From the IMG/VR virus record IMGVR_UViG_2563366882_000002: a DNA stretch of 36,507 bases; one strand, given 5' to 3'. How positions within the stretch are numbered: position 1 is the stretch's first letter; each line of letters starts with the position of its first letter. Of the stretch, positions 2,915 through 3,794 are shown one piece after another. This DNA is from a virus (lineage: Duplodnaviria > Heunggongvirae > Uroviricota > Caudoviricetes). The position numbers were made by a program, and so were the translations under genes. Under the pieces are notes generated by a model. The model ran no database searches and was not told where the DNA came from. It worked only from the letters and a program-made list of their open reading frames with translations.

Positions 2915-3148
2915 ATGCTGACGAAAGAACCATCATTTGCATCGCTGCTGGTAAAACAAAGTCCGGCAATGCACTACGGTCACGGCTGGATTTATTTACC
3001 TTGTGGGAAAAAGTGGCATCCAAGTTTTGAATTACAACCCCGGCAACAGGCTTACCGGGGAAGAAATAAAAAGCGATTCCTACAAAGATTTATGGTTAAC
3101 GTGGCAAACAACCTGCGAACCAAGCGAAAAGTTTTTCTTGGAAGCTGA
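2915..3148 (+). CDS. hypothetical early protein (MHYGHGWI...GKKWHP family, copy 1)
   Basis: start ATG 2915 after TGAGGTG; overlaps cII stop; 5' end lies in the left 60-bp direct repeat. Confidence 0.4.
   Translation: MLTKEPSFASLLVKQSPAMHYGHGWIYLPCGKKWHPSFELQPRQQAYRGRNKKRFLQRFMVNVANNLRTKRKVFLGS
2932..2991. repeat. 60-bp direct repeat, copy 1 (59/60 identical to 3735..3794)
   Basis: direct comparison of the two sequence stretches. Confidence 0.85.
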
Positions 3149-3554
3149 GGTTTACATCGTCAACCCGACCACAGGCAATAGCAGCTCTTTTGTAGGCAGG
3201 GTTTAACAAAGATCCGAATGTTGTGGAGTCAGAGTGATGCAAAGCTTTCAATTTTTGTGCAATGAACTGTGGAGACAATTCATCCTCGGCGTAAAGCAAC
3301 TCACCATATTGTCGGCTTTGTACGCTTGCTCGTTCCGCAATAATAGCTGGTTGCCATACAAGTTGGATTGTTGCGATTACAACAACAGGAAAAGCGAACA
3401 ACCATTCCAGACCTGTATTAGCAAATACAGCTGTTCCGCTTATAAGTTGGATTGCTGTCATTAATTTATCAGCTCGACCATGGAACGTTGCTGTCATTAG
3501 TTCAAGGTAATAACAGTAGTGTAATTGGAAGTATTCGGAGCTTTGTTTAGTCAT
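3096..3554 (-). CDS. hypothetical protein, antisense to the early operon, probable membrane protein
   Basis: 152 aa ORF on the opposite strand between the 60-bp repeats; hydrophobic segment LEWLFAFPVVVIATIQLVW. Confidence 0.45.
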   Translation of the reverse strand: MTKQSSEYFQLHYCYYLELMTATFHGRADKLMTAIQLISGTAVFANTGLEWLFAFPVVVIATIQLVWQPAIIAERASVQSRQYGELLYAEDELSPQFIAQKLKALHHSDSTTFGSLLNPAYKRAAIACGRVDDVNLSFQEKLFAWFAGCLPR

Positions 3555-3563
3555 GCCGGATTC

Positions 3564-3644
3564 CTATTTCTTCTCTTGCCCCGGTTCAGGCTGAGGTGCT
3601 GGAGCCGGGCGAGGGAGTACATGAAAGTTGTCTGTTTCTGACAT
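3564..3644 (-). CDS. candidate small protein (26 aa, MSETDNFHVLPRPAPAPQPEPGQEKK)
   Basis: AAGGAG RBS 7 nt upstream; stop lies 7 bp before the start of the 152-aa ORF. Confidence 0.25.
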   Translation of the reverse strand: MSETDNFHVLPRPAPAPQPEPGQEKK

Positions 3645-3734
3645 CAGTTTTCTCCTTTGAGGGGTAGATGATTGTTAGCACAAATAGTCTACCACTGAGG
3701 CACGCGCCGGGCGTGTAGAAAAATTCCCGGCACA

Positions 3735-3794
3735 ATCATTTGCATCGCTGCTGGTAAAACAAAGCCCGGCAATGCACTACGGTCACGGCTGGAT
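3735..3794. repeat. 60-bp direct repeat, copy 2
   Basis: 59/60 identity with 2932..2991. Confidence 0.85.

Follow-up and report, generated by a model that had tools for sequence, protein, structure and literature searches.

The early region of a prophage of the phage 186/Fels-2 type carries a two-gene cassette, oriented against its neighbours, between two nearly identical copies of a 60-base pair (bp) sequence. We analysed this locus within a window of 36,507 nucleotides (nt), the whole stretch of DNA of IMG/VR virus record IMGVR_UViG_2563366882_000002, which open reading frame (ORF) and domain calls identify as a 186/Fels-2-type P2-like (Peduoviridae) prophage. The repeats correspond in sequence to the conserved stretch at the 5' end of fil, which in phage 186 encodes a cell-division inhibitor, and comparison with relatives indicates that they arose by the tandem joining of two alleles of one variable slot, fil-A with the cassette and fil-B with a gene that we term orf74. 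The cassette encodes a conserved 26-amino acid (aa) proline-rich peptide, from what we term the micro-ORF, followed by a 152-aa membrane protein. Our best inference is that this protein is a prophage-expressed superinfection exclusion or abortive-infection effector whose synthesis would be gated by the micro-ORF. The explanation as a whole, allele fusion together with a gated membrane effector cassette, is in our judgement moderately probable.

Much of the layout given in a preliminary description of this DNA was borne out. The two direct repeats are identical at 59 of 60 positions. A repeat search extended them to 2929-2991 and 3732-3794 (61/63 identical), and a weaker block in the same register follows at 3004-3026 and 3807-3829 (78% identity), so that homology runs on beyond the repeat. 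Between the repeats, both minus-strand ORFs (26 and 152 aa) were recovered, as was the perfect AAGGAG ribosome-binding site of the smaller one. Gene calls place the cassette antisense within the early operon (pR: apl-cII-fil...A) of a 186-like prophage. The larger product likewise has the character of a membrane protein that had been ascribed to it, with two hydrophobic stretches at roughly residues 31-47 and 51-68.

The two plus-strand ORFs that bear the repeats had been described as paralogues. Both are indeed Fil: each passes the gathering cut-off of Pfam family PF10893 (25 bits), directly after cII as in phage 186. They are not equivalent, however, as the second is a 5'-truncated remnant. 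The first, fil-A, matches phrog_816 'cell division inhibitor' (E 8e-26), is 78% identical to Fels-2 Fil and begins 8 nt past the cII stop, at an ATG with its own ribosome-binding site (position 2915). The copy of fil-B in the window is without a start codon, the first five codons and a ribosome-binding site, and inspection of the sequence upstream of the internal ATG at 3772 found no Shine-Dalgarno sequence. It scores 48.3 bits against PF10893, over profile positions 15-48 only, and its protein is 93% identical to the intact 98-aa Fil of phage 813R9. The residues MHYGHGWI, formerly read as the start of these ORFs, begin at residue 19 of Fil and are not its N-terminus. The window thus resembles the 186 Fil family in domain and position, but differs from it in holding two diverged alleles in tandem, the second of them startless. 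Furthermore, fil-A shares its last 53 nt (3096-3148), in antisense, with the 3' end of the 152-aa gene, and its final 17 codons are antisense to AWFAGCLPR, the most conserved motif of the 152-aa protein. This overlap places the two genes under mutual constraint and makes the 3' ends of their mRNAs complementary.

The closest phage records to the window are Fels-2, Escherichia phage 813R9 and Klebsiella phage 4LV2017, and a four-way alignment with them resolved the locus into simpler parts. Fels-2 has the order cII, fil-A, antisense cassette, DUF5347, with no second fil. In 813R9 and 4LV2017 the shared fil 5' end runs straight into the fil-B 3' part, orf74 and DUF5347, with no cassette. The window holds both arrangements in tandem. 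A search for relatives without the insert, as the preliminary description had proposed, showed the 743 bp between the repeats to be an insertion relative to 813R9, 4LV2017 and many Escherichia coli genomes. The compound arrangement is not the conserved ancestral state in all relatives; those in E. coli show three states of the locus. Fels-2 has no orf74, which 813R9, 4LV2017 and several E. coli prophages have together with fil-B.

The frequency of these states was assessed in two surveys. Among 5,426 complete E. coli genomes, the locus was found without the cassette in about 1,200 and the cassette in 40. The compound form accounts for 38 of the 40, at 99.8-100% identity; the other two carry the cassette at about 94% identity, and the one examined (L036) has the Fels-2 arrangement. 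In IMG/VR, 61 loci encode the 152-aa protein: 43 are of the Fels-2 type, six are compound, six are of the Yersinia/Hafnia type, four have the cassette and orf74 without the fil-B remnant, one has a frameshifted 152-aa gene and one is a different compound (L072). The cassette is present in E. coli NC101, NGF1 and CI5 and in S. Typhimurium LT2. The compound allele occurs in at least two int-cI (immunity) backgrounds, those of the window and of NGF1, and must therefore have persisted and spread.

These comparisons identify the segment from cII to DUF5347 as a variable slot. In other relatives it contains nothing (E. coli D7, in which fil and DUF5347 are adjacent or overlapping), orf74, or an antisense 82-aa ORF. 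The last was seen at 1248-1496 in both L005 and L006, at 2274-2522 in L026 and at 2240-2488 in L072; one such ORF starts MLTQIEKDRIEKLENEV... and has a coiled-coil-like look. As this is a second kind of antisense ORF, the slot is a small hotspot for antisense cargo.

The sequence around the repeats points to how the two alleles were joined. Among E. coli phages, fil-A and almost all fil-B alleles agree over the first 77 nt of fil with at most one base of difference, and the 60-bp repeat segment is identical at 59-60 of 60 positions across them; from nt 78 the two diverge sharply (16/33 identity). The conserved cassette always ends ...AAAAATTCCCGGCAC(A)A, with the same edge in five different contexts, and in the window this edge abuts fil codon 6 (...CCCGGCACAA/TCATTTGC...) with at most 1-2 nt of microhomology. 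The near-identity of the first 77 nt in all E. coli fil alleles means that such a join left fil nt 18-77 as a 60-bp repeat, and the scant microhomology marks the join as illegitimate. We propose that an unequal exchange of this kind would have taken place between co-resident genomes of a phage with fil-A plus cassette and a phage with fil-B, the second fil copy being left as a promoter-distal remnant without a start codon. The single mismatch between the repeats, T at 2962 in copy 1 and C in copy 2, is of no use as a marker of deletion derivatives because both variants are common fil polymorphisms, seen in 65 viral contigs.

A second compound shows that joins of this kind recur in the slot. 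In L072 (IMGVR_UViG_3300036772_000077, about 1880-2260), a diverged 5' fragment of DUF5347 joins fil-A at about nt 62 (junction GAATTA/CGGTCA), and the cassette and a complete DUF5347 gene come next; fil-B, orf74 and the antisense 82-aa ORF lie upstream. This compound is independent of that in the window, with other breakpoints and no repeat.

The preliminary description had read the cassette as captured through the repeats and removable by recombination between them. Capture by that route is not supported: the same cassette occurs without the repeat in Fels-2 and in Citrobacter, Enterobacter and Klebsiella prophages, in 43 repeat-less IMG/VR contigs and in two E. coli genomes, and in Yersinia and Hafnia it follows cII immediately, fil-A being absent. 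Removal is possible in principle and would restore an intact fil-B, but no deletion product was seen in genomes; none of the 5,426 E. coli genomes contains the exact product, the best match being 98.7%.

The most developed form of this idea is a Campbell-type capture, in which an 803-bp circle comprising the 3' part of fil and the cassette integrated by homologous recombination at a fil 5' segment and could leave again, at an appreciable rate, by RecA-dependent excision. Integration of a circle by a single crossover gives exactly the observed structure of direct repeats around an insert, deletion between the repeats would restore a fil-B laid out as in 813R9 and 4LV2017, and 60 bp is above the minimal length for RecA-dependent recombination in E. 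coli. We nonetheless regard it as unlikely. The cassette fills the slot without repeats in most relatives, the exact deletion product is missing from the E. coli genomes surveyed, and the compound allele has been kept nearly unchanged in its 38 genomes and across immunity backgrounds. L072, itself without a repeat, points to sporadic illegitimate joins and not to a repeat-based mechanism, and formation of the circle would itself require an illegitimate join. A transposable element with target-site duplication was considered and rejected: neither of the two small ORFs is recombinase-like and the 60-bp 'duplication' is fil coding sequence. A repeat search found no terminal inverted repeats around the cassette. 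That the repeat and ORFs are a sequencing or assembly artefact, or functionless decaying junk, is scarcely credible: one copy of the 152-aa gene with an internal in-frame deletion (L117, described below) speaks for decay, but the identical structure recurs in 38 independent complete E. coli genomes and in 5 IMG/VR contigs, both ORFs are under purifying selection, and the 170 clusters of the larger protein all keep a length of about 150-160 aa.

Beyond the Fels-2 group, Yersinia, Hafnia and Pectobacterium prophages carry a homologue of the 152-aa gene antisense directly after cII. More remote relatives are 22-41% identical. In Haemophilus-type, Enterobacter and E. coli lambdoid prophages they are flanked by the early-left genes and the CI repressor gene, and in one such context adjoin GmrSD and HEPN genes; a Vibrio prophage (again after cII) and a Mu-like prophage provide further distant contexts. 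Family members with examined contexts thus come from prophages of Enterobacterales, Pasteurellaceae and Vibrio. In every locus examined the gene opposes the orientation of its neighbours, and it mostly lies beside cI or cII. An exhaustive profile search returned 170 clusters at 50% identity (E<=1e-3), nearly all of 150-165 aa. A word-indexed protein search with the 152-aa protein retrieved only enterobacterial 'hypothetical proteins', and its repetition at E 10 added nothing.

This distribution supports the view that the cassette is an autonomous moron of many prophages. Morons are independent transcription units inserted between conserved genes, a concept of Hendrix/Juhala (reviewed in PMC3594210). 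The cassette is likewise short and separates genes that stand side by side in close relatives (E. coli D7; fil-B/orf74-DUF5347 in 813R9 and 4LV2017), opposes the surrounding operon with its own predicted promoter and terminator, and has been exchanged horizontally among P2-like, lambdoid and Mu-like prophages. It differs from morons in that its GC content is not distinct from that of its flanks and in being bicistronic, with a conserved leader-like micro-ORF.

Two side observations concern these loci. In Fels-2 (L001, NC_010463.1), a plus-strand coding sequence of about 134-135 aa, STM2733.1, is annotated opposite the 152-aa gene and micro-ORF (2341-2745, locus coordinates). We rejected it as a real gene: the plus-strand ORF is only 76 aa long in the window, so that the Fels-2 annotation is probably on the wrong strand, and the pattern of selection fits the minus-strand ORFs. 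Beyond the cassette, Yersinia, Hafnia and Pectobacterium prophages have a 58-aa gene (L009/L012/L013, 3623-3799, minus strand, locus coordinates) that contains KGKG.PGIIIRPDGRRWxPP, reminiscent of the Fil core GHGWI...GKKWHP. If this gene is a relative of Fil, the order cII, cassette, fil would put it on the same side as the truncated fil-B of the window. A literature search found nothing on STM2733-2735, on the 152-aa family or on any pairing of a proline-rich ORF with a SLATT protein. No transcript data for the cassette were found either, the Salmonella prophage transcriptome paper treating BTP5 and not Fels-2.

The micro-ORF is the constant companion of the larger gene. Its stop codon TAG runs straight into the Shine-Dalgarno sequence of the 152-aa ORF (TAGGAA), with 9 nt between the two ORFs. 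Across ten enterobacterial loci, the ratio of non-synonymous to synonymous polymorphism (pN/pS) was 0.21 for the micro-ORF and 0.205 for the 152-aa ORF, compared with 0.95-2.9 in shifted frames without shared wobble positions. The micro-ORF was present in 87 of 88 further loci, 6-10 nt before the large ORF, and in seven of eight remote subfamilies whose partners are only 22-41% identical, the Mu-like group being the exception. Its stop lies at or directly before the large-ORF Shine-Dalgarno sequence in the loci checked (TAGGAA, TAAGGA, TGAGGA, TAAGAGG). The products read MADTEDFHVLHRPAPKPQPEPNEDKK in Yersinia, MEIEKEEKSHVPTRPTPQPKPR in the Haemophilus-type locus, MERCVDKYEERHVPLRQKPPVPPKPPKEN in the E. 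coli lambdoid locus, MLINQFGERDIPSPDSQVPYRPSERQPEPQPKQ in Enterobacter and MKYINSCGERRDYQPPRPRPTPPPK in Vibrio; the motif hVPxRPxPxP is common to the micro-ORFs with these divergent partners. The micro-ORF is unannotated in every annotated record that we looked at.

Low pN/pS, wide co-occurrence and a stop at the Shine-Dalgarno sequence together argue for translation of the micro-ORF and for the importance of its sequence, and the position of the stop strongly suggests that synthesis of the 152-aa protein is coupled to, or gated by, its translation. The peptide may act as a nascent chain or as a free partner, both being compatible with the conservation data. In its position 6-10 nt before the gene that it would regulate, its stop at the downstream Shine-Dalgarno sequence and its conserved proline-rich sequence, the micro-ORF resembles leader ORFs and arrest peptides such as SecM, TnaC and proline-codon leaders (e.g. 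mgtP). Unlike the PPP runs that need EF-P, however, its prolines mostly alternate (PxPxP). To our knowledge, the sequence matches no known arrest motif.

The 152-aa protein was modelled with AlphaFold from a 100-sequence alignment (pLDDT 92.5). The model has helices at residues 6-43 and 50-67: a long N-terminal helix continues into membrane helix 1, a three-residue turn leads to membrane helix 2, and four short helices follow. The family shares a conserved C-terminal motif, AWxAGxLPR. Sequence searches of Pfam, NCBIfam and the PDB with the protein gave no match. Foldseek against BFVD, conversely, returned many top matches labelled SLATT, at probabilities of 0.75-1.0 but with E of 0.02-1 and TM-scores of 0.4-0.6. 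Among 100 family members, three had weak PADLOC matches to RTasSLATT and four to 2TM effector (CBASS) (best E 2.7e-4), and two data sources apply SLATT labels to relatives, SLATT family 5 in one case and DUF4231 in the other.

Proteins of the SLATT type have been predicted to be pore-forming toxins (Burroughs et al. 2015, cited in bioRxiv 10.64898/2026.04.29.721553). The model of the 152-aa protein weakly resembles these effectors in its predicted amphipathic N-terminal helix, two-helix membrane hairpin and short helical cytoplasmic tail. It differs in having no Pfam SLATT/DUF4231 match, in its own AWxAGxLPR motif, and in the lack of a nucleotide-generating, reverse-transcriptase or sensor gene nearby, the micro-ORF being its sole constant partner. 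None of the partner genes typical of SLATT proteins (SMODS, SLOG, reverse transcriptase, TIR) was found beside the cassette in the contexts examined. As it failed on both sequence and partner genes, we describe the protein as weakly SLATT-like in fold and do not assign it to the SLATT families.

Candidate signals for expression of the cassette were found at both ends. Five loci spanning 67-100% protein identity share, without change, the T, A, A and T of the predicted extended -10 element and the GTGG before it. Further upstream, the GC palindrome keeps its 6-bp stem in nine of nine divergent loci, with two compensatory double changes, one G.T wobble and a loop of N13 or N14, and conservation across contexts ends 3-4 nt past it. 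Lying upstream of the predicted -10, the palindrome would be outside the predicted cassette mRNA; RNAalifold preferred long-range pairing over a hairpin in this region. At the other end, the stem of the predicted terminator-like hairpin is conserved in Fels-2. No Rfam match was found within 2700-4300.

From these elements we propose the following course of events. Transcription of the cassette, opposed to that of the early operon, would start at an extended -10 promoter of its own. Ribosomes would first translate the micro-ORF, and synthesis of the membrane protein would be coupled to or gated by this step. The protein would then insert into the inner membrane as a two-helix hairpin of SLATT-like fold and guard the lysogen against other phages, as an effector of exclusion or abortive infection. 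On lytic growth of the resident prophage, convergent pR transcription through the cassette would dampen its expression. The effector role is suggested by the fold, the opposed orientation, the position in the immunity region (sometimes beside defence genes) and the spread among unrelated prophages; the membrane exclusion or toxin-type role put forward in the preliminary description is plausible, and fits the weak SLATT-like fold and the moron-like placement.

A partial precedent is provided by the SieB-type abortive-infection proteins of P22 and lambda, which are also prophage membrane proteins encoded inside the early lytic region. The sas antisense RNA modulates P22 sieB (PMC7067206), and opposite-strand transcription could similarly modulate the cassette gene during lytic growth of the resident phage. 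Unlike SieB, the 152-aa protein shows no sequence similarity to that type in Pfam, and no internal-start 'Esc' form is evident.

Several observations weigh against this combined explanation. The SLATT link of the 152-aa protein is weak, at a Foldseek E of 0.02 or worse: Pfam SLATT_1-6 and DUF4231 matched neither the window protein, 100 family members, 16 relatives nor the family consensus, even at E 10, and a PDB structure search gave generic helical matches only and no solved SLATT-like structure. PADLOC-DB v2.0.0 gave no match for either cassette protein at E<=1. A strict two-hexamer sigma-70 scan predicted no promoter at the cassette, and the conserved palindrome could mean quite different regulation. 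The 152-aa gene is dispensable in at least one lineage, as L117 (IMGVR_UViG_2734482780_000011, 1501-1872) carries the compound allele with an 84-nt in-frame deletion that cuts the product to 124 aa. As to origin, unequal crossover and integration of an 803-bp circle yield the same product, so that direction and mechanism are not separable by sequence.

Turning to other functions, the cassette might be a toxin-antitoxin or addiction module, in which a labile 26-aa antitoxin binds the 152-aa toxin and keeps it closed until prophage loss or a shut-off of host translation frees it. The conservation of the peptide sequence itself, at low pN/pS and as hVPxRPxPxP beside highly divergent partners, would suit an antitoxin, as would the arrangement of a small gene followed by a tightly coupled membrane protein, which recalls antitoxin-toxin operons; the prediction that SLATT-type proteins are pore-forming toxins, cited in bioRxiv 10.64898/2026.04.29.721553, also favours it. 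We think this an improbable role but one to be taken seriously. Searches of Pfam, PADLOC and NCBIfam found no similarity to any known toxin-antitoxin family, and a stop at or just before the Shine-Dalgarno sequence would mark a regulatory leader ORF equally well.

A bolder extension of the effector proposal is that the micro-ORF and the SLATT-like protein form an undescribed, widespread two-part immunity module, in which a sensor of ribosome arrest or translation status, tripped when an infecting phage upsets translation, switches on a membrane pore and aborts infection. This is speculative, and we would give it only a slender chance. Equally speculative is the corollary that the nascent hVPxRPxPxP peptide would control ribosome access 6-10 nt downstream, with no separate protein sensor.

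Alternatively, the cassette may serve the phage's own lysis-lysogeny decision, by convergent transcription that would interfere with the early operon past cII or through a peptide or membrane protein that modulates FtsH and RseP, the proteases that degrade CII. Its location directly after cII (or fil), antisense, in P2/186-like phages and a Vibrio prophage would suit such a role, and the 20-bp half-site spacing of the palindrome resembles that reportedly typical of 186 CII sites. The degradation of 186 CII by two membrane proteases, FtsH and RseP (PMC7708051), also favours it. Control of the cassette promoter by CII was nevertheless rejected, as the half-sites GCCGGG/CCCGGC are unrelated to those of the window's own presumed pE site (ATGTTTG-N13-CAAACAT) and stay constant beside cII alleles only 36% identical. 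Most relatives, moreover, are without the cassette, and in lambdoid and Mu-like prophages the module lies far from any cII. A role in the phage's own decision is in our view very unlikely.

Features of the locus and its setting in the window (positions in nt of the window; + and -, strand).
Feature	Position	Strand	Basis	Remarks
Integrase gene	1-1131	-		
CI repressor gene	1449-2024	-		
Apl/Cox-like gene	2144-2365			
cII (186-type CII activator)	2392..2907	+	Pfam Phage_CP76, E 4e-42	upstream neighbour of the locus
fil-A	2915..3148	+	Pfam Phage_186_Fil (PF10893), 83.1 bits	complete Fels-2-type Fil allele, 77 aa
Direct repeat, copy 1	2932..2991	+		fil nt 18-77
Predicted terminator-like hairpin CCCCGGTAAGCCTGTTGCCGGGG with T-rich tail	3038..3060	-	consensus scan	3' of the 152-aa ORF, inside fil-A
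152-aa two-helix membrane protein (predicted)	3096..3554	-	hydropathy, AlphaFold model, pN/pS	phrog_6315 family
Micro-ORF, 26 aa, proline-rich (MSETDNFHVLPRPAPAPQPEPGQEKK)	3564..3644	-	pN/pS, conservation	
AAGGAG Shine-Dalgarno of micro-ORF	3652..3657	-	sequence	7-nt spacer to ATG
Predicted extended -10 element TGGTAGACT (TGnTAnAnT)	3686..3694	-		
GC palindrome GCCGGG-N14-CCCGGC	3706..3731			outer edge of the conserved cassette
Direct repeat, copy 2	3735..3794	+		nt 18-77 of 5'-truncated fil-B
5'-truncated fil-B	3735..4014	+		starts at fil codon 6; residual ORF from internal ATG 3772
orf74 (phrog_4312)	3885..4109	+	phrog_4312 match, E 2e-52	
DUF5347 gene	4132..4473	+	Pfam DUF5347, E 4e-33	conserved right-hand neighbour of the variable slot
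gpA replication protein gene	5852-8272			

The surroundings of the slot are those of its relatives. The cII gene of the window is 89-99% identical to those of Fels-2, 813R9 and 4LV2017, and the DUF5347 gene was seen in every Fels-2/186-like relative examined; the early gene order is cII, Fil, then DUF5347, DUF2732, TraR-like genes and a Dam methylase gene. On the minus strand, the 5' end of cII contains ATGTTTG-N13-CAAACAT (2398-2424), which we take to be the likely CII binding site of the pE promoter, its half-site being of the phage 186 type. Host DNA at the right end of the window (33888-36220) encodes a 561-aa Asp-Al_Ex/TrkA_C permease (minus strand) and YbjM, so that the right end of the prophage must fall before 33.9 kb.

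Two other stretches of the window drew attention. Between int and cI, a low-GC stretch (34-36%) includes a 63-aa ORF with a signal-peptide-like N-terminus (1242-1433, minus strand). In relatives, the int/cI neighbourhood houses a KAP NTPase (NGF1), an AAA_15 ATPase with DUF4435 (PARIS-like) or KwaA/KwaB, and this region seems to be a further cargo site. The stretch from gpA to the late genes (8553-11820) encodes a DinI-like protein (8553-8858), a DUF4145 protein (8987-9727, minus strand), a weakly HipA_C-like protein (10169-11083) and a HIRAN-domain protein (11080-11820), in a position that resembles the tin/old-type hotspot of P2.

As to what the locus means, the repeat itself represents ordinary phage mosaicism, and offers a clean, datable example of alternative alleles stacked at a prophage hotspot; a practical consequence is that annotation pipelines call the truncated fil-B remnant a second Fil protein. 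The module of micro-ORF and SLATT-like protein matters more. It brings to light a cassette family without an entry in Pfam, NCBIfam or a defence catalogue, together with a conserved proline-rich micro-ORF that gene callers have missed. Should the exclusion or abortive-infection role prove true, the cassette would represent a compact type of such systems, with a membrane effector partnered by nothing more than a peptide or leader, and would provide a concrete case for how SLATT-like effectors stay silent.

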